IMG/VR virus record: IMGVR_UViG_2778261666_000010
Strand: one strand, 5' to 3'
Source of the DNA: a virus
Lineage: Duplodnaviria > Heunggongvirae > Uroviricota > Caudoviricetes
Length of the DNA stretch: 24,201 bases
Shown: piece after piece, positions 6,757 through 24,201 of the stretch
Layout of the letters: the number at the start of each line of letters is the position of its first letter
Position numbering within the stretch: position 1 is the first letter of the stretch
Notes under the pieces: model-generated
What the model saw: the letters and a program-made list of their open reading frames with translations, nothing else
Databases searched by the model: none
Told to the model about the DNA's origin: nothing
Made by a program: the position numbers and the translations under genes

Positions 6757-7557
6757 TTAACCGCGCTTCGCCTTCTGCGTCGCGGTGGTTTTTCGTGTTG
6801 CAGGCTTCCGCGTTGTCTTTTTACTTTTGCTGCTTTCGTCCTGCGCCTGCTGTGCGCTGGCGTCTTCTGGTGCGGCTGCGGAATCGGCTTTTTTCAGGGC
6901 GCGGGAAAGGGTTGCAATCTCGCGTTTCACACCTGCGTTCGGGTTCAGGTGCATCGCTTCGCGCAGCAGCTTCAGTGATGAGGCCATGCTGTCCGCATCG
7001 CTCAGGCCACGGCGGGCAAAGGCGCACGCCTTGCATAATTTGGCGCGCACTTCGTCCGGCATATCCTGGTTGGCGACAATTTCCCAAAGTGTGTCCAGTG
7101 GTTCGATAAAGGCGGACAAATCCGCGTCGGCATCCGTCCCGGCCTGCGTCAGTACCGGGTTGCAGATTTCTTCGGTCAGTACCGTGACAGCAGTACGGCC
7201 AAAGTTATCCGGCATGATGAGGTTGTGACGGACCACATACGCACCAATACGCAATGCCAGCGGAAGATCGCCGCAGTCAATCGCCCACACCATCAGCGTG
7301 GCAATCACTTCATCCTGCTGCCCGCCGTCAGCCTCCAGCGTTCCTTCAATCCAGCCGGAAAAGTCCGGCAACAACTCTTTTTTGATGGCGGCTTTCGCGC
7401 TTCTGGCCTGTACGCCCTTAAGCCGGGCCTGTGCCAGACGCAGACGATACAGCACCTCTTCATGCGCGGTACGCGCGGCGTGGTCCACGCCTTCATTCGC
7501 CCGGCCTGCGCGCTGTGCCATCACGTTCTGCCAGTGTTGCTGTGCAGGAGTAATCAT
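6757..7557 (-). CDS. M: Terminase small (endonuclease) subunit (P2 gpM-like)
   Basis: 266 aa with ...MPDEVRAKL... and a basic K/R-rich C-terminal tail as in P2 M; ATG 7557 with GGAGAG upstream. Confidence 0.8.
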   Translation of the reverse strand: MITPAQQHWQNVMAQRAGRANEGVDHAARTAHEEVLYRLRLAQARLKGVQARSAKAAIKKELLPDFSGWIEGTLEADGGQQDEVIATLMVWAIDCGDLPLALRIGAYVVRHNLIMPDNFGRTAVTVLTEEICNPVLTQAGTDADADLSAFIEPLDTLWEIVANQDMPDEVRAKLCKACAFARRGLSDADSMASSLKLLREAMHLNPNAGVKREIATLSRALKKADSAAAPEDASAQQAQDESSKSKKTTRKPATRKTTATQKAKRG

Positions 7558-9669: not shown

Positions 9670-11421
9670 ATGATTCAGGACGCTTTTGTGCGCCAGCGTG
9701 CGCGACAACTTTACTGGCAGGGTTATCCGCCCGCTGAAATATCACGTCTGATGGGAATAAACCCGAACACGATTTATGCGTGGAAAAAACGCGACCAGTG
9801 GGATGAAACGCCACCCGTGCAGCGTGTCACGCAGTCCATCGATGCGCGCCTCATCCAGCTTACTGAAAAACAGAATAAAACAGGCGGTGACTTTAAGGAA
9901 ATAGACCTGCTGACCCGGCAGCTTAAAAAACTGCATGATGGCCAGCCGGATGCGACGGCCACAGGAAAGAAAGGCCGGGCGAAAAAACTCAAAAATCATT
10001 TCACGCCGGAACAGATTGCCGCACTGCGGGAAAAAATCATCAGCAGGCTGGAGTGGCATCAGCGGGGCTGGTTTGACTCCCTGACCCTTTGCAGGGAAGC
10101 CGGGATACGTAACAGGATGATCCTGAAATCCCGACAGATTGGGGCGACCTGGTATTTTGCACAGGAAGCACTGCTGATGGCGCTGCGTGACGATGTGGCG
10201 CAACCTTACCAGCGTAACCAGATTTTTTTGTCTGCGTCGCGTCGTCAGGCGTTCCAGTTTAAAAGCATTATTCAGAAGGCCGCGGCTGAAGTTGATGTGG
10301 AGCTGAAAGGGGGCGATAAAATCATCCTCTCCAACGGCGCAGAGCTGCATTTTCTCGGCACTTCTGCTGCGTCGGCACAGTCCTATACGGGCAATTTTTA
10401 TTTTGATGAATTTTTCTGGGTCAGTCGCTTTGCTGAACTGCGCAAGGTGGCTGGCGCTATGGCAACCCTCAGCGGACTGCGGCGCACCTACTTCTCCACG
10501 CCATCCACCGAAACGCACGAGGCATACGCCTACTGGAACGGCGACCGCTGGAATGAGAAAAAGGCCTCGCATAAACGCCAGCGTTTTTCTGTGGACTGGA
10601 AAACGCTGCATAACGGGCTTATCTGCCCTGACCGGACGTGGCGGCAAATTGTCACGCTGGAAGATGTGGTTAATCACGGCTGGAAACACACTGATATCGA
10701 CGAAATTCGTGATGAAAACACCGAAGACGAGTTCCTCAATCTCTATATGTGTGAGTTTGTCCGCGAAGGGGAATCGGCATTTAACCTGAATATCCTGATT
10801 GGCTGCGGTGTTGACGGATACGACGACTGGAAAGACTGGAAACCTTTTGCTCCCCGCCCGATGGGGAATCGTCCGGTATGGATTGGGTATGACGCAAACG
10901 GCAGTAGTGGCAACGGCGACAGCGGCGCTGTGTCCGTGGTGGTTCCTCCGGCTGTTCCTGGTGGCCGTTTTCGAACGGTGGAGACGCGACGCGTTCAGGG
11001 GCTGGAGTTTGAAGAACAGGCCAGAGTCATTGAAGAGTTCACGTATCGCTACAACGTGGAACACATCGGCATTGATGTGACGGGCGGGAACGGGGAGGCT
11101 GTTTATCAGATAGTGAAACGGTTTTTCCCTGCTGCTATTCCGTACACCTTCACGCTGTCATCAAAACGGTCGCTGGTACTGAAAATGCTGCAAATAATGC
11201 GTGCCGGGCGGTGGGAATACGATCGCGCCGAACGCGAGCTGGTCGCGGCCTTTAACGCCGTGCGTAAGGTGAAAACACCGGGCGGCTTTATCACTTACGA
11301 AACGGACCGCGCGAGGGGGATCAGCCACGGCGACCTTGCGTGGGCAACCATGCTTGCTGTCATTAACGAACCGATTGGCGGCGAAGGAGAAAACGAGCGT
11401 TTCACGGTTATGGAGTTCTGA
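9670..11421 (+). CDS. P: Terminase large (ATPase) subunit (P2 gpP-like)
   Basis: 583 aa; ATG 9670 preceded by GGGGGAG; N-terminal HTH-like segment (YWQGYPPAEISRLMGINPNTIYAWKKRDQWDE); stop overlaps the portal start. Confidence 0.9.
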   Translation: MIQDAFVRQRARQLYWQGYPPAEISRLMGINPNTIYAWKKRDQWDETPPVQRVTQSIDARLIQLTEKQNKTGGDFKEIDLLTRQLKKLHDGQPDATATGKKGRAKKLKNHFTPEQIAALREKIISRLEWHQRGWFDSLTLCREAGIRNRMILKSRQIGATWYFAQEALLMALRDDVAQPYQRNQIFLSASRRQAFQFKSIIQKAAAEVDVELKGGDKIILSNGAELHFLGTSAASAQSYTGNFYFDEFFWVSRFAELRKVAGAMATLSGLRRTYFSTPSTETHEAYAYWNGDRWNEKKASHKRQRFSVDWKTLHNGLICPDRTWRQIVTLEDVVNHGWKHTDIDEIRDENTEDEFLNLYMCEFVREGESAFNLNILIGCGVDGYDDWKDWKPFAPRPMGNRPVWIGYDANGSSGNGDSGAVSVVVPPAVPGGRFRTVETRRVQGLEFEEQARVIEEFTYRYNVEHIGIDVTGGNGEAVYQIVKRFFPAAIPYTFTLSSKRSLVLKMLQIMRAGRWEYDRAERELVAAFNAVRKVKTPGGFITYETDRARGISHGDLAWATMLAVINEPIGGEGENERFTVMEF

Positions 11422-12467
11422 TGAGCAGAAAAAACAAAAAAGTGCGCATGAGTTCACGCATTGATCTCGCTGATGCGCTCAGGAAAGAATCATCGCTCAG
11501 TGCATTCACATTTGATGGTCCTTATCGCCTGACCGGGCATGACCTGCTGGACAATATGTACTGTGCTGATAACGGGCGGTGGTATGAAACCCCGGTGGAC
11601 TGGTACGGTCTGGCAAGAGCAGCCCGGCAAACGTCCTGGCATCAGTCTGCGCTTTACTTTAAGCGTAATGTATTGCTCGGTTGCTATATTCCGCACCCGC
11701 TGCTTTCCCGGCAGGATTTCTCGGCGCTGGCGCTGGACTGGTTTGTGTTCGGTAACGCATTCCTTGAGCTTCGAAGCAATATGCTCGGCGAACCACTTAA
11801 ATTACGGCACACCCTGGCGAAATACATGCGACGCGGAAGCGATCTTGAATCATGGTGGTATGTGCAGGATGGCAAGGACGCGTTTCAGTTTCGCCCTGGC
11901 AAAGTGTGCCACCTGATGAATCCTGACATTAACCAGGAAATCTACGGCATGCCGGAATATCTCGGCGCATTACTCTCGGCCAGCCTGTCTCATTCGGCGG
12001 ACATGTTCAGAAAACTGTATTACGACAACGGCTCCCACGCCGGGTGCATCATCTACATCGGTGCAGCGCAGGTAAACCGCGAAAGCATGGACTCCCTGAA
12101 GGAAACGCTACAGGGTGCGCGTGGTGGTGGTGCATTTAAAAACGTGCTCATTCATGCGCCCAACGGGGGCAAAGAGGGGGTGCAAATTTTGCCGTTCCAG
12201 CAGATCACCGCAAAGGATGAGTTCATGAATGTTAAGGCGGCATCCCGTGATGATGTGCTGGCTGCGCACCGCGTTCCGCCGCAACTGATGGGGGCGATGC
12301 CGGGCGAAAAAAGTGCGTTTGGCGATGTGGAGAAGGCAGCGCGGGTTTACGCAATTAACGAGCTGATGCCCGTCATGGAGGCTATGAAGCACATCAATGA
12401 CTGGCTTGGCGAAGAGGTGATCCGTTTTAACTCTTATGCTCTTCTTGATGAAAAAACAGCCCCGTGA
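11421..12467 (+). CDS. Q: Portal protein (P2 gpQ-like)
   Basis: 348 aa, close to the 344 aa I recall for P2 Q; immediately downstream of the terminase, as in P2. Confidence 0.9.
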   Translation: MSRKNKKVRMSSRIDLADALRKESSLSAFTFDGPYRLTGHDLLDNMYCADNGRWYETPVDWYGLARAARQTSWHQSALYFKRNVLLGCYIPHPLLSRQDFSALALDWFVFGNAFLELRSNMLGEPLKLRHTLAKYMRRGSDLESWWYVQDGKDAFQFRPGKVCHLMNPDINQEIYGMPEYLGALLSASLSHSADMFRKLYYDNGSHAGCIIYIGAAQVNRESMDSLKETLQGARGGGAFKNVLIHAPNGGKEGVQILPFQQITAKDEFMNVKAASRDDVLAAHRVPPQLMGAMPGEKSAFGDVEKAARVYAINELMPVMEAMKHINDWLGEEVIRFNSYALLDEKTAP

Positions 12468-12483: not shown

Positions 12484-13006
12484 ACCAGAGTTGAACCATT
12501 TTCTGGGTGCCGTCAGGCTTGAGATTATCAATTTCAGAGAGAACGTAATATTGAATGGCTTCACAAACGGTGGTGTAGGGTGAATTACCTTCTTTAAGTG
12601 GCACGATATTATTATTAACGCGAACCTGTATTTCATCGTTATACATTGCGATCGAAACAGGAGTGTGCACGAACGCGACTTCGCCAGGTGTGTCGTCAAC
12701 CACCGTTTCAATACTAAAAGTCAGTTTTCGCTCATCATTGCTGCCCCGTGCTTTGGGGGTAGCGGCAGGGATCTGGGATAAAGGCATTCTGCGAAATCCT
12801 TCGGCTGCTTCCAGTCCGCATGAAACGTAATGCTGGCGATTACCGTCGCTATCTGTCCAGGTCTGTGATGGCAGCTCCAGCGAGATTTCATAAGCATCAA
12901 CAATGCCCTGGGCAAGGCGTACAAGCGGGGTCAGATCTTCATTGCGGCGAAAGCTCTCCTTTACCTGCTCCCGTTTTTCTCTTAACTGCTTGTAATTAAT
13001 GACCAT
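12482..13006 (-). CDS. Hypothetical protein (174 aa), accessory gene next to the portal
   Basis: Track start 13045 is GTG; ATG 13006 has a perfect GGAGG 7 nt upstream (MVINYKQLREKREQ...). Ends at the shared terminator. No motif I recognise. Visibly more AT-rich than the flanking structural genes. Confidence 0.6.
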   Translation of the reverse strand: MVINYKQLREKREQVKESFRRNEDLTPLVRLAQGIVDAYEISLELPSQTWTDSDGNRQHYVSCGLEAAEGFRRMPLSQIPAATPKARGSNDERKLTFSIETVVDDTPGEVAFVHTPVSIAMYNDEIQVRVNNNIVPLKEGNSPYTTVCEAIQYYVLSEIDNLKPDGTQKMVQLW

Positions 13007-13108
13007 AAAACAGCCTCCATTGATTTCTTTGCTCGTATTTTGCACTTATGAAGTATGGTCGGCAAGGTGCCGTATCGCTGACGCGCTTCGCTTGTCTGCT
13101 GCTTCGCC

Positions 13109-13131
13109 GGGGCATAAAAAATTTATGCCCC
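13109..13131. other. Perfect 10-bp-arm palindrome/hairpin
   Basis: GGGGCATAAA-AAA-TTTATGCCCC, about 100 bp upstream of the orf174a start; no flanking U-tract on either strand. Confidence 0.4.
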
Positions 13132-13505
13132 GACTCTCCAGCTCCTGTATCAATCAGATAATTTCACGACGCCTTCCAGCTTATTGTCATCATCGACGGT
13201 CAGGCTCTTACGCAATCCCGCCGTGCTGACTGCATGTTCTCGTCGCCTCAGTGCGATTTTGACGGCCTTATCAGTCACCCCATCAAATCAAAAGCCCTCA
13301 CGTATTTTTCACGCTCAGCGTGAGAAAGACAGCCATTCTGTTGTGTCGCTGCGACATCGTTCAGGGAATGCTATTTACCCCCTGAAACGCGGGCTGTTCC
13401 CCCGTCACCTGCGCGCAGAAAAAACGCGTTTTTTTGTGCACGCACGGATCCTTGACGGATCCAGCCGCCACGGGGGCCGGAAGGGCAAAAAGTCGTTCAA
13501 AAAAA

Positions 13506-13532
13506 TTGTGCAAATTTGTGCACTATTGTGCA
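13506..13532. repeat. Three TTGTGCA direct repeats at exact 10-bp phasing
   Basis: aTTGTGCAaatTTGTGCActaTTGTGCAgc, copies starting at 13506, 13516 and 13526 in non-coding DNA; helical-phase iterons suggest a protein-binding array. Confidence 0.5.
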
Positions 13533-13572
13533 GCAGGGCGATGCGCGATTATCGCCTTGGTTTGAGAGGAAA

Positions 13573-14097
13573 TCAGGTGTTCTTTTTACCTTCTGTCAGT
13601 GGGCATAACCATCCACTATTTACATCACTTAGCTGATGCGTTCTTTCCTCGTGCTTCTCCTGCCACAATGCTTTTCCGCCAGCCTTTATGATGGCTCTTT
13701 CAACATCCCGCTCGTATCGCAAGGGCTGAAATACGTTATTAATGAAATATTCGCTTATGTCCGGAAGCAATACTGCAAAATTATTGGTTTGTTGCGCCGT
13801 TCGGCTATGCAGCAAAGCGGCATACTTTAATGCGTCCTGTGCTTTCTGGAATTTCAGTGCATGGTCAGTGGCGATTTTTTCCAGTTCAGCGATCCTGTTG
13901 TCTTTGGTTTCCAGCTCTTCCAGCAGCTCGGCGATAATGTCCATTTCCTGATGACGGATTTGACGCTTAAACGCCGCCACTGCTTCGCTACAATCCTGCT
14001 CAGCATTTGGGTTATCCGTGATGGCCTCATACCACGCCAGCGTCGATTGATAGTTTTGTGCTGCCTCACGTAATGCCTGATAGTTGATTTCGCTCAT
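13573..14097 (-). CDS. Hypothetical protein (174 aa), predicted alpha-helical/coiled-coil, downstream of parR
   Basis: ATG 14097 with AAGGAG upstream; a hairpin (14135-14152, CAGGGCGAACTCGCCCTG) separates it from parR; no recognisable motif. Confidence 0.6.
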   Translation of the reverse strand: MSEINYQALREAAQNYQSTLAWYEAITDNPNAEQDCSEAVAAFKRQIRHQEMDIIAELLEELETKDNRIAELEKIATDHALKFQKAQDALKYAALLHSRTAQQTNNFAVLLPDISEYFINNVFQPLRYERDVERAIIKAGGKALWQEKHEERTHQLSDVNSGWLCPLTEGKKNT

Positions 14098-14160
14098 TAT
14101 GTCGTTCTCCTTGTTTATGTTCTGAGGTGGAGAGCAGGGCGAACTCGCCCTGATGTTGTG

Positions 14161-14472
14161 TTATTCAGGAAATAACGCCCTGATATTTCTGGCCATCTGA
14201 CTGGTTATCTGTGCGGTTGGTACTGGCTGTGACTCGGGGCGTTCTGTCCTGGTTTGTGTCACTGATAACGTCTCATCGTCAGCCCATGCAGCCAGTCGGT
14301 AAGCCTCTGCCGGATTCATTTTCAGAAGTGCCAGCCCGGCCAGAAAAGCCACGCGTTGGCCGCTTTTGCGAGCTTCTGGTGTAAGGCTGTCCAGCCAGGC
14401 GCATGCTTCACCTTCGTTCTTGACGGCGGCGGGTTTCAGATAGAAACTTATCCGTCTGGTTGGTGTCGTCAT
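14161..14472 (-). CDS. parR: ParR-like centromere-binding adaptor (partition protein)
   Basis: Start moved to ATG 14472 (MTTPTRRISFYLKPAAVKNEGEACAWLDSLTPEARKSGQRVAFLAGLALLKMNP...), with AAGGAG upstream and overlapping the parM stop. Resembles the N-terminal ribbon-helix-helix region of plasmid R1 ParR (...RTIAFKLNPD...LDSIP...RAALTAGLALY...) from memory. The track's 45-residue N-terminal extension overlaps parM. Confidence 0.65.
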   Translation of the reverse strand: MTTPTRRISFYLKPAAVKNEGEACAWLDSLTPEARKSGQRVAFLAGLALLKMNPAEAYRLAAWADDETLSVTQTRTERPESQPVPTAQITSQMARNIRALFPE

Positions 14473-14476
14473 TGGT

Positions 14477-15436
14477 TTACTCCTTGTCCATTGCGTACAG
14501 CCCATTAACCAGAGCAAACTGTGGCACCCCGTCCGCGATGAAAGTCGCATTAACTCCGCAGGCTTCGCGGATAGCGGGTGCCACAATCTCCGCCCCGCCA
14601 CCGACAACCATCACCCGCCCGTAACCCGAAAAACCCGCCAGCGCGCGGATCACGCGTTGTTTCAGTGTTTCTTCCTTTTCACGAATAACCGCCATCAGGC
14701 TGGCGTAATGCGCGTCATTGTGGATGTGCTGGCGCAGCCAGGCTTCATCATGGCGATGTTCGATAATGGTATTGGCGATGTGGTGACTGGTACGCATACC
14801 GTTAGTGGCCATCACCGACAGTACGGCATCGGCCATCAGGGAAACGCCTACGTGTGGATCGCAAAACACCTGGCTGATACCTGCCAGTTGTCCCTGAACC
14901 TTTGCCACATCCAGCGTGGTTCCGCCCAAATCCACAATCAGCAGGGATTCAAACGGACTCATGTCAGCCAGTGCCTTAAAGCCAGCCGGAATGGATTCAG
15001 GCATAACCCGTACATTACGGATAGTGAATGCCTTACCGTTCTGGTACTCCACCGGGCGCATGACGTTCGCTTTTTTGCGGTTGATGTTGGCCATGTCCGG
15101 CTGTGCGTTTGTGTCGAAATACTCGCTCAGTGGCAGGGTGACAACCACATCCACTTCCTGTGGTGTGATGCCTGATTTGACCAGCGCGTGATGAATGGCA
15201 ATTACATTCACATCGCTGTACTGGTATTGCGTGTCGGTCGTCTGGACAAAGCGATCGCTGACCGGATCAAAACCATAGCGCACGCCATCAAGCATGTAGT
15301 TCGCGGGCTGCATGCCACCGAACGGCGCAGACCATTCCGATTTGAAGCTGTTCGGGCTGATGGCGTTGCGGCGTTCGCCGTTCTCAGTCCATGCCAGCTT
15401 GATGTTGGTGGAGCCGTCGTCGATACAAATTTTCAT
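14477..15436 (-). CDS. parM: ParM/StbA-like actin-type segregation ATPase
   Basis: 319 aa, collinear with plasmid R1 ParM as I recall it (MKICIDDGSTNIKLAW..ISPNSFK..YSDVNV..HHAL..RKKAN..VMPESIPAG..DLGGTTLD..GVSL..GGGAEIV..LVNG), including phosphate-1, phosphate-2 and adenosine motifs of the actin fold. Confidence 0.85.
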   Translation of the reverse strand: MKICIDDGSTNIKLAWTENGERRNAISPNSFKSEWSAPFGGMQPANYMLDGVRYGFDPVSDRFVQTTDTQYQYSDVNVIAIHHALVKSGITPQEVDVVVTLPLSEYFDTNAQPDMANINRKKANVMRPVEYQNGKAFTIRNVRVMPESIPAGFKALADMSPFESLLIVDLGGTTLDVAKVQGQLAGISQVFCDPHVGVSLMADAVLSVMATNGMRTSHHIANTIIEHRHDEAWLRQHIHNDAHYASLMAVIREKEETLKQRVIRALAGFSGYGRVMVVGGGAEIVAPAIREACGVNATFIADGVPQFALVNGLYAMDKE

Positions 15437-15468: not shown

Positions 15469-15580
15469 TTACGGGATTTTTAAATCCCGCTTTTGCCTGT
15501 TTTGTGCGCGCTTCATATTTCGCGGCGCTTTTTTTGCTCATTTACGGGATTTGTGAATCCCGTTTCTGTCTGTTTTTTGT
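15469..15580. repeat. Two ~38-bp direct repeats, each with an internal hairpin and T-rich tail, straddling the gene A stop and the parM upstream region
   Basis: Copy A 15469-15506 (TTACGGGATTTTTAAATCCCGCTTTTGCCTGTTTTGTG) and copy B 15542-15580 (TTACGGGATTTGTGAATCCCGTTTCTGTCTGTTTTTTGT); copy B lies inside the last ~23 codons of gene A. Confidence 0.6.
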
Positions 15581-18335
15581 TCCCACGGGTCAGGCCACCC
15601 CGCAGCAGGTCTGCTTTGCGGTGGGCGCGTTCAGTGGTTTCACTGATTCTCTGTGCGTGCTCTGCGTCACGGATGGCGCGCAGCATGTCAGAAAGCACGG
15701 TAACGGGTGTCTTCATGGTGTTCTGGTCTTGCTGAAGTGTGGATGCCAGGCGTGCGGCGGCTTCGGGGTCTGATGCCCCTAGCTGTTCCAGATAGCTGGC
15801 GACCGGGTTATGGCGGATCTCCGTGCTGCTTACGCCGTGATTACGGCTCAGGCGCTGCCAGAGCTGCGTGATTCGGCTGTCCGGTCGGGTATCTGGTTTG
15901 CGTACAATTTCAAATCCCTGCGGTGCAATGATGCTGCCGTCAACGTACAGACTGCCGCCCCGTAACAGGTGCAGCATCTGTTGTTCACCGATATGCAGGC
16001 CGAGAGATTCGGCAGACTCCCGCCATTCTTTAGCGAGTAACTCGTGGTTATCAGGCAAAGGTCGCGGCTGTTTGCGGCTCTGTGTCCAGTTCTGCATTTC
16101 ATCGCTGCTGTTTTTTGCCTGTTTGTCACGAAGCGAACGCATCAGCGCCCGGCGTTCGTGCCGTTTCAGTGAGCGCATCCATTCATTTACTTCAACGCCG
16201 TCAGGAAGCTGCGGCCACGGTGCTGGCCGTTCTTCCGGCTGTTCTGTTCCGTTGTTGTTCGTTTCCTGTACACGGGGACAGTTATTGCCACGAGTCCAAG
16301 GGGCGGCAGGGCCGCCCTGAAGGTCAAAACCATTTTCGCGGGCGCTGTCTTCCGCTTCCGGTTTACGCCTTACCAGCTTCCAGTTATCCGGGTGCGTGCA
16401 CACGCGGGAAGACTCCCCGATGAGCGGCGACCAGATCCCGTAAATCTGTACACTCTGCTCGCCGTAATCGTTCAGTTCATCTGCGAGGTCGTAGGCGGTG
16501 CGAATCAGGTAGTCTTTACGTGGAACAAGTACGCCGCCCTGTTTTTCAATGTAGGAGGCAAAACACCCGGCATCGGCGGCAGCGAGTACCGCATCCATTG
16601 CGTCATCCTTCAGCCGTTGCGGGCCTTCCGGGTTGCGTGCCATCTGGCTGGCAAGGCGGCGCAGTTCACGCCACACCTGACGGGAGGGGATGCCAAAGAA
16701 CTGGAACTGGCGGACCCGATGAAGGCGCGCCCAGCCGATGGCGCGCTCCACGCTCTCGGCCATTGATTTTCCGGTTTCGTGGTCAACGCGTGGTTTGCCC
16801 GTTTTCGGGTCGATTCCATCCACGGCGCGGCTGTCCAGGTTTTTTCCGATGTAGGTGGCGATGTAGCTGGTTGGCGTGCCTTTGGAGCCGTCGACGTACT
16901 CCACCTTAAAGCGCGGAGTAATATCATTGCCCAGCTCGTGGCGGTCTTCCTGAATGGCAATATCGCGGGTGATGGCCACGATGCTGTCGATTTCTTCTGG
17001 ATGAGCAAAGACCATCATATGCCAGTGCACGGTGCCGTCATGGTGAGGCTCCACCGTGCGGATGCCATACCAGCGCAGGCCGTCGCGGTTCAGTTTCTTG
17101 CGGACCGCCGCAAAAAACGTGTTAACCAGGTAATCGCTGGAGTCGCGCATGGTGGCCCCGTTCCATTTGGGATTCGGATGACCGTTCTCTGTTGTGGCGT
17201 GGTATTTTGACGGGCAGGTGACAGTCAGAAACACCGCTTTGTCGCCACGGGCTTCGGCTAGAAGTTCCAGCCCCTTCATGGTGGCCATCATTTCTGCCTT
17301 ACGGTGAACCGGGTTACTTACTCCCGCGTAATACACTGTCTCAAGATCAATCGTGAAGCCGTCTTCGTTTTCCAGTTCGAAGCTCTTCAGGAAGTCGCGG
17401 GTTTTCTCGCGCTGTGCGCGAAACTCGCTTAACGCGTCCTGGCTCAGATAGGGTGATGTTTTTCTGGAAACCAGACAGGCGGCACGGAGCTGTTCTTCCC
17501 GCCACTCGCAACGTAAAAGCCACAGTTTGTGTTTCCACCATTCCGCACAGGTCAGGCGAAGGATGGCACCCGGCAGCAGCTCCGTATTCAGTGCGTTCTT
17601 CCGGTCTTTGTCCGTTCTCAGTGCTTCGTAATGCGGCGGCATGGTGTGCAGATGTAACGCCATGCGGGCCAGCATCTGATACGCCTTCAGCGCAATTTTC
17701 ATGGTCAGCTCGCCATCGGTCGCGCCAAAGTTATCGCAGAGTGTTTCGAAAGTGCTGCTGAACATCGCCGCCGTCATGGTGGCCAGCGTCTGTATCTGGT
17801 GTTTGTTGAGCTGCGGCAGGTAAAGCAAATCGTCCAGGCGTTCGCGTCCGGCAAGGGAGCAATAACACGGTGTCAGCCAGCGTCCGTCAGTGCGATCCAG
17901 ACGTTCGAATATTTTGCGCAGGGTTCCGCGTGCATAGCGTTCCGCCTGCCAGCTCTTTTTGCCTTTCCGGCGATCGGCTTCCTGTTTTTTGCGCAGGAAG
18001 GAGAGGTGGCGAATAAGCGGATCGCGCAGATAGGACGGCAGCAGGCGGAGCGAGGCCATGGCTTCATCCACCGCGCCGCGTGCCTGTTTTCTGGCGTCTC
18101 CTGTCAGTGTGATGGTTTTGTCCTGTTTTTCCTGTGCGTCCAGGCTTTTATTAATCAGGTTGCCCAGCGGCGTGGCGGAGAACGCCGCATCAGCCATTTC
18201 CTGGCGGCGCTCGTTCTCTGCCCGGTAGGCATCCAGCCAGGAGGAAAGCGCGGATTCAGGAGCGGGGATCCCCGTTCCTTCACGCCCCACTGCGTGGCGC
18301 GGTTGTTGCCAGTCCCTGATGTACTCTGCCGTCAT
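15513..18335 (-). CDS. A: Replication initiation endonuclease (P2 gpA-like, rolling-circle HUH family)
   Basis: 940 aa, ATG 18335; metal-binding motif EPHHDGTVHWHMMVF and downstream tyrosine region (...TSYIATYIGKN...). Longer than the ~761 aa I recall for P2 A. Confidence 0.85.
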   Translation of the reverse strand: MTAEYIRDWQQPRHAVGREGTGIPAPESALSSWLDAYRAENERRQEMADAAFSATPLGNLINKSLDAQEKQDKTITLTGDARKQARGAVDEAMASLRLLPSYLRDPLIRHLSFLRKKQEADRRKGKKSWQAERYARGTLRKIFERLDRTDGRWLTPCYCSLAGRERLDDLLYLPQLNKHQIQTLATMTAAMFSSTFETLCDNFGATDGELTMKIALKAYQMLARMALHLHTMPPHYEALRTDKDRKNALNTELLPGAILRLTCAEWWKHKLWLLRCEWREEQLRAACLVSRKTSPYLSQDALSEFRAQREKTRDFLKSFELENEDGFTIDLETVYYAGVSNPVHRKAEMMATMKGLELLAEARGDKAVFLTVTCPSKYHATTENGHPNPKWNGATMRDSSDYLVNTFFAAVRKKLNRDGLRWYGIRTVEPHHDGTVHWHMMVFAHPEEIDSIVAITRDIAIQEDRHELGNDITPRFKVEYVDGSKGTPTSYIATYIGKNLDSRAVDGIDPKTGKPRVDHETGKSMAESVERAIGWARLHRVRQFQFFGIPSRQVWRELRRLASQMARNPEGPQRLKDDAMDAVLAAADAGCFASYIEKQGGVLVPRKDYLIRTAYDLADELNDYGEQSVQIYGIWSPLIGESSRVCTHPDNWKLVRRKPEAEDSARENGFDLQGGPAAPWTRGNNCPRVQETNNNGTEQPEERPAPWPQLPDGVEVNEWMRSLKRHERRALMRSLRDKQAKNSSDEMQNWTQSRKQPRPLPDNHELLAKEWRESAESLGLHIGEQQMLHLLRGGSLYVDGSIIAPQGFEIVRKPDTRPDSRITQLWQRLSRNHGVSSTEIRHNPVASYLEQLGASDPEAAARLASTLQQDQNTMKTPVTVLSDMLRAIRDAEHAQRISETTERAHRKADLLRGGLTRGNKKQTETGFTNPVNEQKKRREI

Positions 18336-23208: not shown

Positions 23209-24201
23209 ATGTCGATTAAGCAACTCAAAGACGGACGTTATCAGGTCGATGTCAGACCGCAGGGGGCGGAAGGAAAGCGGATTCGAAAAATCTTTGCCCT
23301 GAAATCAAAGGCTCAGGAGTTTGAGAAGTATGTGTTACAGAACTTTCATGACAAGCCATGGCAGGCTAAGCCAGCTGATCAGCGGCGATTATCAGAGCTG
23401 CTTGACGCGTGGTGGATGCTTGATGGGCGTAATCAGGCTTACGGGGATAGCTACAGGGTTAGGCTAGGGAAGGTTGTTCGTGAAATGGGAGATCCTCGCG
23501 CCAGTCAGATGACGCGAAAATTTATGCTTGAATATCGGTCAGAGAAATTACAGGCCGGATTAATGCCGTCCAGTATTAATCGTGACTTATGCGTACTGTC
23601 TACCATGTTCACGGTGCTGATTGAAGCTGAGGTCTTTCACAACGCGAACCCTGTACGCGGTATACGAAAACTGAAAGTTCAGAACACAGAGATGGCCTTT
23701 CTTTCTGATGATGAGATTGAACGGCTTCTTGAGCGACTGGAGGGTGATGCGCGTCGTGTTGCCATTCTGTGTCTTTCTACTGGTGCCCGATGGAGTGAAG
23801 CATCGGAACTACGTGGAGAGCATATCGTTGGCAACCGGGTGACGTTCTTTAACACCAAAAACGGAAAATCCCGTTCGGTTCCTGTGGCGGATTCGGTCGT
23901 GCCTCTGATTAAAACCCGTCGAACGGGGTTATTGTATCAGGTTGATTATCTGAAGTTCCGGGAGATTCTTCAGGAGGTGAAACCGGATTTGCCGAAGGGG
24001 CAGGCTACGCATGTCATGCGTCATACGTTTGCCACACACTTTATGATGAATGGCGGAAATATTGTTACGTTGCAACGAATCCTGGGGCACGCAACGATTC
24101 AGCAAACAATGACGTACGCTCATTTTTCGCCGGACTTTTTACAGGACGCGATCAACTTTAATCCGCTGGCTGAAAGTGTCCATAAACTGTCCATCGATTA
24201 G
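23209..24201 (+). CDS. int: Tyrosine integrase (P2 Int-like)
   Basis: ATG 23209 preceded by GGAGG; C-terminal catalytic region ...HVMRHTFATHFMMNGGNIVTLQRILGHATIQQTMTYAHF... with the R/H/Y signature; stop is the last codon of the window, so attL/attR should lie just beyond it. Confidence 0.9.
   Translation: MSIKQLKDGRYQVDVRPQGAEGKRIRKIFALKSKAQEFEKYVLQNFHDKPWQAKPADQRRLSELLDAWWMLDGRNQAYGDSYRVRLGKVVREMGDPRASQMTRKFMLEYRSEKLQAGLMPSSINRDLCVLSTMFTVLIEAEVFHNANPVRGIRKLKVQNTEMAFLSDDEIERLLERLEGDARRVAILCLSTGARWSEASELRGEHIVGNRVTFFNTKNGKSRSVPVADSVVPLIKTRRTGLLYQVDYLKFREILQEVKPDLPKGQATHVMRHTFATHFMMNGGNIVTLQRILGHATIQQTMTYAHFSPDFLQDAINFNPLAESVHKLSID

Follow-up and report, generated by a model that had tools for sequence, protein, structure and literature searches.

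In bacteriophage lambda, the nicking site cosN is flanked by cosB (R3-I1-R2-R1) and by cosQ, with terminase-recognition repeats lying beside the nicking site and bending of the DNA being involved. The lambda R sites measure 16 bp, include an inverted orientation and follow no strict 10-bp tandem; IHF is needed at I1, and the reader of these sites is the winged HTH of gpNu1. For the P2 family, a 55-bp cos core of P2, 186 and P4 was reportedly defined by Ziermann and Calendar in 1990.

Conservation of a 55-bp core in the cos sites of P2, P4 and 186 is likewise stated in two published sources (PMC5694545, PMC3931495). Cos is the sole DNA that P2 and its satellite P4 have in common, and in P2-like phages the DNA on either side of cos is a cargo hotspot with accessory and defence functions (PMC9122126). 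A P2 cosmid endowed with longer cos flanks was transduced better, for which its authors named the flanks as a possible cause (PMC9594776).

The window, i.e. the whole stretch of 24,201 nucleotides that was analysed, is a P88-like prophage (Xuanwuvirus, P2 family, Peduoviridae) of a type that is very common in Escherichia coli. It carries three phased copies of the heptamer TTGTGCA, an array that belongs to a well-known class of elements, namely the cos packaging signals. Considering its sequence and setting, the array is likely to be the terminase-recognition arm of a P88/Novemvirus-type cos site. A literature search on the P88 cos site, on P88_4B11 and on the heptamer returned no paper describing it.

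The phased array and the surrounding cos module

Read directly from the plus strand, positions 13499-13532 comprise AAAAAAA TTGTGCA aat TTGTGCA cta TTGTGCA, in which the exact heptamers start at 13506, 13516 and 13526 with a period of exactly 10 bp. These starts agree to the base with the three identical, evenly spaced heptamers that had been pointed out in the earlier note. As a word, TTGTGCA shows no enrichment in the window, where it occurs 7 times and shuffled sequences lead one to expect 6.0. Chance falls far short of explaining the phased triple: no other 7-mer of the whole window is repeated three times at periods of 8 to 13, and none of 2000 windows simulated under a first-order Markov model held any 7-mer three times at period 10.

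A fourth TTGTGCA on the plus strand, preceded by T7, lies 72 bp upstream of heptamer 1, and since this distance corresponds to approximately seven helical turns, the fourth copy would be presented on roughly the same face of the helix as the array. The T7 tract (13429-13435) and the A7 tract form an inverted pair that flanks a GC-rich centre. The upstream T-run with its TTGTGCA is also found in diverged lineages and in satellites, and in some of them it is doubled (TTTTTGTGCACTTTGTGCAG). Within the same interval, a perfect 16-bp palindrome, AAAAAACGCGTTTTTT, was observed at 13419-13434 just before the upstream heptamer, and other lineages do not have it. The direct repeat ACGGATCC occurs twice, 11 bp apart, at 13444-13462 between the upstream heptamer and the presumed cut, and this repeat pair amounts to two GATC/Dam sites.

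The presumed cos cut is placed at 13487|13488 from the ends of one linear record, NC_049391 (P88_4B11), which starts and ends at precisely this window position, 19 bp from heptamer 1. A second independent record ending at cos was not found, and a search for contigs ending there yielded none that was informative. In the centre a GG.GGAA.GGGCA block is conserved, and the distances from the array to this block and to the upstream copy are essentially fixed. The reverse complement of the portal-side block is CTGCGCGCAGGTGACGG, which resembles the left flank of P2, CTGCGCGCTGACGG.

With regard to the neighbouring genes (Table 1), about 1 kb separates the portal gene from the array downstream of it; the capsid and scaffold genes are located between the small and the large terminase genes. 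The gene order terL-portal-(cargo)-array-(cargo/ParMR)-gpA recurs, beyond the window itself, in about 150 related loci, and it follows from this order that the array occupies the cos position of the P2 family. Variable cargo flanks cos on both sides in the window, namely the minus-strand ORF of 187 aa and the minus-strand Ead/Ea22-like gene, which fits a cos-adjacent hotspot (PMC9122126).

The cos module, taken as 146 bp, is present in 1102 of 5426 complete E. coli genomes. Of the 1251 places at which it was found, 1250 are chromosomal, yet these phages encode a ParM/ParR plasmid-partition pair.

Table 1 Coordinates of the array, the cos module and the neighbouring genes in the window.
Feature	Position	Strand	Basis or remark
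Small terminase subunit, gpM-like	6757..7557	-	Pfam PF05944 match and alignment
Large terminase subunit, gpP-like	9670..11421	+	Pfam Terminase_5, HTH_23, Terminase_6N, Terminase_6C
Portal gene, gpQ-like	11421..12467	+	Anchor for the unbiased comparison
Variable ORF, 187 aa	12482..13045	-	No Pfam match; between portal and cos; only in some relatives
Whole P88/Novemvirus-type cos module, about 145 bp	13388..13532	+	Main DNA similarity between satellites and phages
Portal-side block CGCGGGCTGTTCCCCCGTCACCTGCGCGC	13388..13416	+	Conserved; left limit of the cos module common to satellites
Upstream element, T-run and single TTGTGCA (13434-13440)	13429..13440	+	Portal side of the presumed cut
Presumed cohesive-end segment CACGGGGGCCGGAAGGGCA	13469..13487	.	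Placed from linear-record ends; uncertain by about +/-15 bp
A7 tract	13499..13505	+	Adjoins heptamer 1; 80-100% conserved per column
Heptamer 1, TTGTGCA	13506..13512	+	Nearest the presumed cos cut; best conserved unit
Heptamer 2, TTGTGCA	13516..13522	+	10-bp register kept in relatives
Heptamer 3, TTGTGCA	13526..13532	+	Last block of the conserved cos module; borders variable cargo
Ead/Ea22-like gene	13573..14097	-	Just beyond the array
ParR-like protein (Plasmid_stab_B)	14161..14607	-	Pfam
ParM	14477..15436	-	Pfam
gpA replication endonuclease	15513..18335	-	Pfam

Conservation among relatives and satellite-like elements

A pattern scan of IMG/VR yielded at least 120 loci, nearly all of which have a portal gene of the same orientation a few hundred bp upstream of the array. 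Since loci selected by the pattern itself are partly subject to ascertainment bias, conservation was retested on 80 loci collected by portal similarity alone (57-100% identity), 73 of which had enough downstream DNA. Of these 73 loci, 65 have three units in 10-bp register at the equivalent place, with 0-4 mismatches. Mismatches numbered 0-1 in 50 loci, 2-4 in 15, 5-7 in 7 and 10 in a single locus, which is cut off before the array position. The earlier note had suggested looking for the same array near cos in related phages, and it is there that the array was found.

Among the portal-anchored loci, the array lies 300-460 bp beyond the portal stop, or approximately 880-1040 bp where an extra ORF is inserted. 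Unit 1 has survived intact nearly throughout, including loci in which units 2 and 3 have degenerated; unit 2 varies to TTGCGCA, TCGTGCA or TTATGCA, and unit 3 is the most degenerate in distant relatives (TTTTGCA, TCGTGCA, TTATGCA), its (T)GCA core staying in register. The spacers are variable (AAT, AAA or AAC for the first; CTA, CTT or TGT for the second), and the DNA downstream differs too. An array that binds protein would be expected to look like this, its words and register conserved and its spacers free to vary. In the Enterobacter soli plasmid pENTAS02, the 35 bp of A7 and array are identical to the window, against about 77% identity elsewhere in the region, and in phiT5282H (Novemvirus) there is one change in unit 3 with the region about 75-77% identical. 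Similarity ends at 13532/13533 both among phages and between phages and satellites; megablast hits to phages and plasmids break off there, with many different sequences lying beyond.

The array is independent of the partition and replication genes. In 29 IMG/VR loci that span the whole interval from portal to gpA, the array is present and ParM/ParR is absent, and gpA in these loci is often only 31-35% identical to that of the window. The array is likewise found without ParM/ParR in pENTAS02, in phiT5282H and in the E. coli Novemvirus-type prophage L333. Loci devoid of ParMR and endowed with a divergent gpA indicate that the array follows the packaging genes and not the partition or replication genes.

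Comparison of six satellite-like elements with six phages by blastn revealed little common DNA beyond window 13367/13388-13533, a block that stops at heptamer 3. Apart from this block, the matches between satellites and phages were short stretches of capsid genes, 39 bp in pENTAS02 and a block of the element L125 corresponding to window 23768-24134. One of the elements, QAKE01000006.1, has a 507-bp terminal redundancy, implying a circle of 12,207 bp, and codes for two integrases, a Toprim primase, AlpA, an Ogr/Delta zinc finger and a P2-family capsid protein. Another, L114, codes for a P4-type integrase, ProQ, a primase and gpO-, gpN- and gpM-like genes; the array is its only blastn match, its upstream T-run and TTGTGCA are kept too, and its heptamers are unchanged with a gpM-like protein only about 29% identical. 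As a group, QAKE01000006.1 and its relatives L145, L161, L114, L110 and L125 are characterised by one or more integrases, a Toprim primase, AlpA, an Ogr/Delta zinc finger and a P2-family major capsid gene of their own. No portal, large terminase or tail genes were found in these elements, and homologues of Psu, Sid and Delta were not detected in them by tblastn. They may represent an undescribed type of satellite. That satellites share essentially only 13388-13532 with the phages, as P4 shares only cos with P2, is the strongest argument for a functional packaging signal of which the array is a part.

Phased TTGTGCA at 10 bp with variable spacers is also common in unrelated phyla, especially in Bryobacterales MAGs, where many copies occur per genome, often as two copies, approximately 75 bp and three copies around a conserved centre, CGTGAAAAAACAAATAAGTCATTTAATTTCTTC. 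Unrelated bacteria also dominated the pattern scan of whole genomes. No protein family was found to recur beside the arrays in these unrelated phyla; only ECF sigma factors were encountered, at inconsistent distances. As the phased motif exists in unrelated bacteria, the motif alone is not diagnostic.

Proposed packaging function, competing explanations and candidate readers

The proposed cos layout would comprise, from the portal side, the portal-side block, the T-run with TTGTGCA, the GC-rich centre with a staggered cut, and finally A7 with the three TTGTGCA, with the array as the distal arm of the cos signal at the right genome end. Neighbouring subunits of an oligomeric terminase would place their DNA-binding domains on successive heptamers along one helix face, and the single upstream copy, approximately seven turns off, would be occupied as well. 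Clamping or bending of the DNA would then bring the nuclease into place over the centre and confer packaging specificity. The earlier note had viewed the heptamers as a cooperative-binding array, with packaging sites near cos among its candidates; the packaging-signal part of that view is strongly supported by the genome end, the conservation and the satellites, and cooperative binding is what we infer from the pattern. In principle, a cos-linked function other than terminase docking, such as end protection or circularisation, could also explain the conservation.

Alternatively, the heptamers and the A-tract could be bound by a nucleoid protein of the host, such as IHF, Fis or an HU-like protein, which would bend the DNA on behalf of terminase in the manner of IHF at lambda I1; the heptamers would then not be read by terminase itself. 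Such a role would be in keeping with the A7/T7 tracts around the centre, which suggest intrinsic bending, with the constancy of the heptamers in the satellite whose gpM-like protein has diverged, and with the phased TTGTGCA arrays of unrelated bacteria. However, no IHF consensus was found within 13380-13540 with one mismatch allowed, and the repeat word differs between clades that have their hosts in common (TGCAT in P2/186, TTGTGCA in P88); a switch of motif class between phage clades with the same hosts points to a phage-encoded reader. To our knowledge, no enterobacterial nucleoid protein has a TTGTGCA direct-repeat site, and we regard a host-factor site as improbable. The IHF-type site that the earlier note had listed among its candidates finds no counterpart in a wider interval either, as no match to WATCAANNNNTTR with one mismatch or fewer lies between 13160 and 14173.

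The sharp end of similarity exactly at heptamer 3, with many different cargos beyond, could be taken as the mark of an operator or recombination site for a phage protein unrelated to packaging, serving regulation or insulation at the cargo edge or acting as a recombination boundary that favours cargo exchange. Selection on the edge of a functional cos would nevertheless give the same sharp break. Moreover, no promoter-like site was found in 13000-14200, the neighbouring genes read towards the array and not away from it, and satellites with unrelated genes have retained the array along with the remainder of cos, which renders this explanation decidedly improbable.

It was also considered whether the array acts as an intrinsic terminator of the leftward gpA-parMR-ead transcript, in which a hairpin GTGCA-CAAATT-TGCAC followed by a U-run would shield cos. 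A consensus scan does flag a minus-strand site at 13523-13508 followed by T7, but its stem comprises just 5 pairs, and folding of the minus-strand RNA is no better than that of shuffles (-8.7 versus -8.2 kcal/mol, z = -0.21). Moreover, a hairpin other than the one adjacent to the U-run has the minimum energy. The stem C at 13523 is missing in about 20% of lineages, the conserved repeats are direct and not inverted, and the cargo modules of relatives appear, by eye and unscored, to carry a GC-rich hairpin and T-run of their own after the array. A terminator is accordingly very unlikely.

Type II parC, as in R1, lies upstream of parM and overlaps the parM promoter. A ParR-type centromere of the prophage ParM/ParR system, which the earlier note had entertained and which the two genes within 2 kb of the array and the phased direct repeats typical of such centromeres bring to mind, is hardly credible here, as the array does not lie upstream of parM but follows the 3' end of parR at approximately 630 bp, past the Ead/Ea22-like gene, and is present in identical or near-identical form in many phages and satellites without ParM/ParR. 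Directly upstream of parM, a 38-nt direct repeat was observed at 15469-15506 and 15542-15579 (73-bp spacing), each copy containing the palindrome ACGGGATTTTTAAATCCCG, i.e. ACGGGATTT(N2-4)AAATCCCG, at 15471-15489 and 15545-15563. This pair of repeats and palindromes is, by its sequence and position, a better candidate for a ParR-binding centromere or operator than the TTGTGCA array. Replication-origin iterons are excluded by the lack of co-variation of the array with gpA, the same array accompanying the divergent gpA proteins and a satellite Toprim primase.

Under the terminase-recognition reading, the heptamers would be read either by the gpM-like small subunit or by the N-terminal HTH of the gpP-like large subunit, and the two appear roughly equally likely. 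The HTH of the large subunit spans residues about 6-63 (nt about 9685-9858; Pfam Terminase_5 and HTH_23). A PDB search with a profile of this N-terminus gave weak matches to HTH domains that are sequence-specific (such as those of a DeoR-type regulator, a resolvase and sigma region 4), and the record of phage 186 annotates the same HTH in its large subunit. A putative recognition stretch within it reads N(P/Q/S)NT(I/V)Y(A/S)WKKRD in the TTGTGCA-type phages examined, the exceptions being two single Lys substitutions and the outlier L331 with 57% portal identity; in TGCAT-type phages it reads KRPTVQSWKQRD and is identical in P2 and 186. The gpM-like protein possesses a basic, Lys/Arg/Thr-rich C-terminal tail. 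No HTH is detectable in it, profile searches returned no meaningful PDB relative, and its single-sequence AlphaFold model is all-helical at low confidence (pLDDT 55.8).

The unchanged heptamers of L114, in spite of its divergent gpM-like protein, are a poor fit for gpM as the reader. Two HTH classes matching two repeat words would fit a reader on the large subunit, a correlation confounded by phylogeny since only two clades were compared, and the retention of heptamers in L114 is as evidence for the large subunit confounded likewise. It is a tentative proposal, possible though on balance doubtful, that the HTH of the large subunit and not the small subunit reads the heptamers, and that the repeat word acts as a packaging-specificity code by which helpers and satellites are matched, including a seemingly undescribed family of satellites of about 12 kb with a P2-type capsid gene of their own. 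If true, the word TTGTGCA or TGCAT would set which P2-family helpers mobilise which satellites.

From a practical standpoint, roughly every fifth complete E. coli genome carries a P88-like prophage with this cos module, and a short, recognisable cos signature permits precise placing of the genome ends of prophages and satellites as well as prediction of satellite-helper pairing. The packaging signal of approximately 145 bp could be employed in the engineering of cosmids and transducing particles, as a second P2-family specificity that is probably orthogonal to that of P2/P4. The analysis further raises the testable question of which terminase subunit reads cos in P2-like phages.

Comparison with known systems

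The R1 parC resembles the array in its short direct repeats at approximately one helical turn, presented on the same face, with ParMR genes nearby. The array differs from it in having only three units, in its position relative to parM and in being present without ParMR.

The lambda cos site is similar in outline to the P88 type, as short repeats lie beside the nick site and an extra element is located on the other side. There is, however, no sequence or protein homology between the two, and no IHF site was found in the P88 type. Whereas the lambda reader is a winged HTH on gpNu1, the P88-type small subunit is a PF05944 protein without a recognisable HTH, and an HTH is located on the large subunit.

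For the closest relatives, the circularised junctions of P2, P4 and 186 were aligned. In these three the conserved flank lies mostly on the right-end side, where TGCATTAAAA and a dyad are found beside the 19-nt end, about 20 bp from the cut. Further out, at about 100-130 bp and in otherwise unalignable DNA, they share the cluster GCAT-N8/9-GTGCAT-N5/6-TGCAT. Judged by its sequence, this distal TGCAT cluster outside the 55-bp core may be a terminase-binding element of P2-type cos.

To the P2/P4/186 55-bp core, including its 19-nt end GGCG(A/T)GGCGGGGAAAGCA(C/T), there is a loose resemblance in the central GG.GGAA.GGGCA block (plus strand), which recalls the P2/186 19-mer, and another in the portal-side CTGCGCGC..TGACGG, in mutually inconsistent orientations. 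Homology of the P88-type centre to the 19-mer GGCG.GGCGGGGAAAGCA was considered and set aside, the alignment being only ambiguous. As this centre is not convincingly alignable to P2, the P88 type is treated as a distinct cos type within the family.

Both types are located between the portal and the right-end accessory or replication genes, both have their conserved flank mainly on the right-end side of the cut, and both constitute the only, or in the P88 type essentially the only, DNA common to helper and satellite. Read in the P2 direction, the P88 type presents TGCACAA three times and then T7 at about 20 bp from the presumed cut, so that in either type a TGCA motif is followed by an A/T run at approximately that distance (TGCATTAAAA in P2, TGCACAATTTTTTT in P88). 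Three TGCA motifs at about one helical turn are likewise common to both, with a spacing of 10-13 bp in the P2 type. The repeat word, on the other hand, is TTGTGCA in the P88 type and (G)TGCAT in the P2 type. The P88 repeats are contiguous, spaced at exactly 10 bp and situated 19 bp from the presumed cut, whereas the cluster of P2/P4/186 is found approximately 100-130 bp away, and the P88 type, unlike the P2 type, carries an additional copy on the portal side of the cut.
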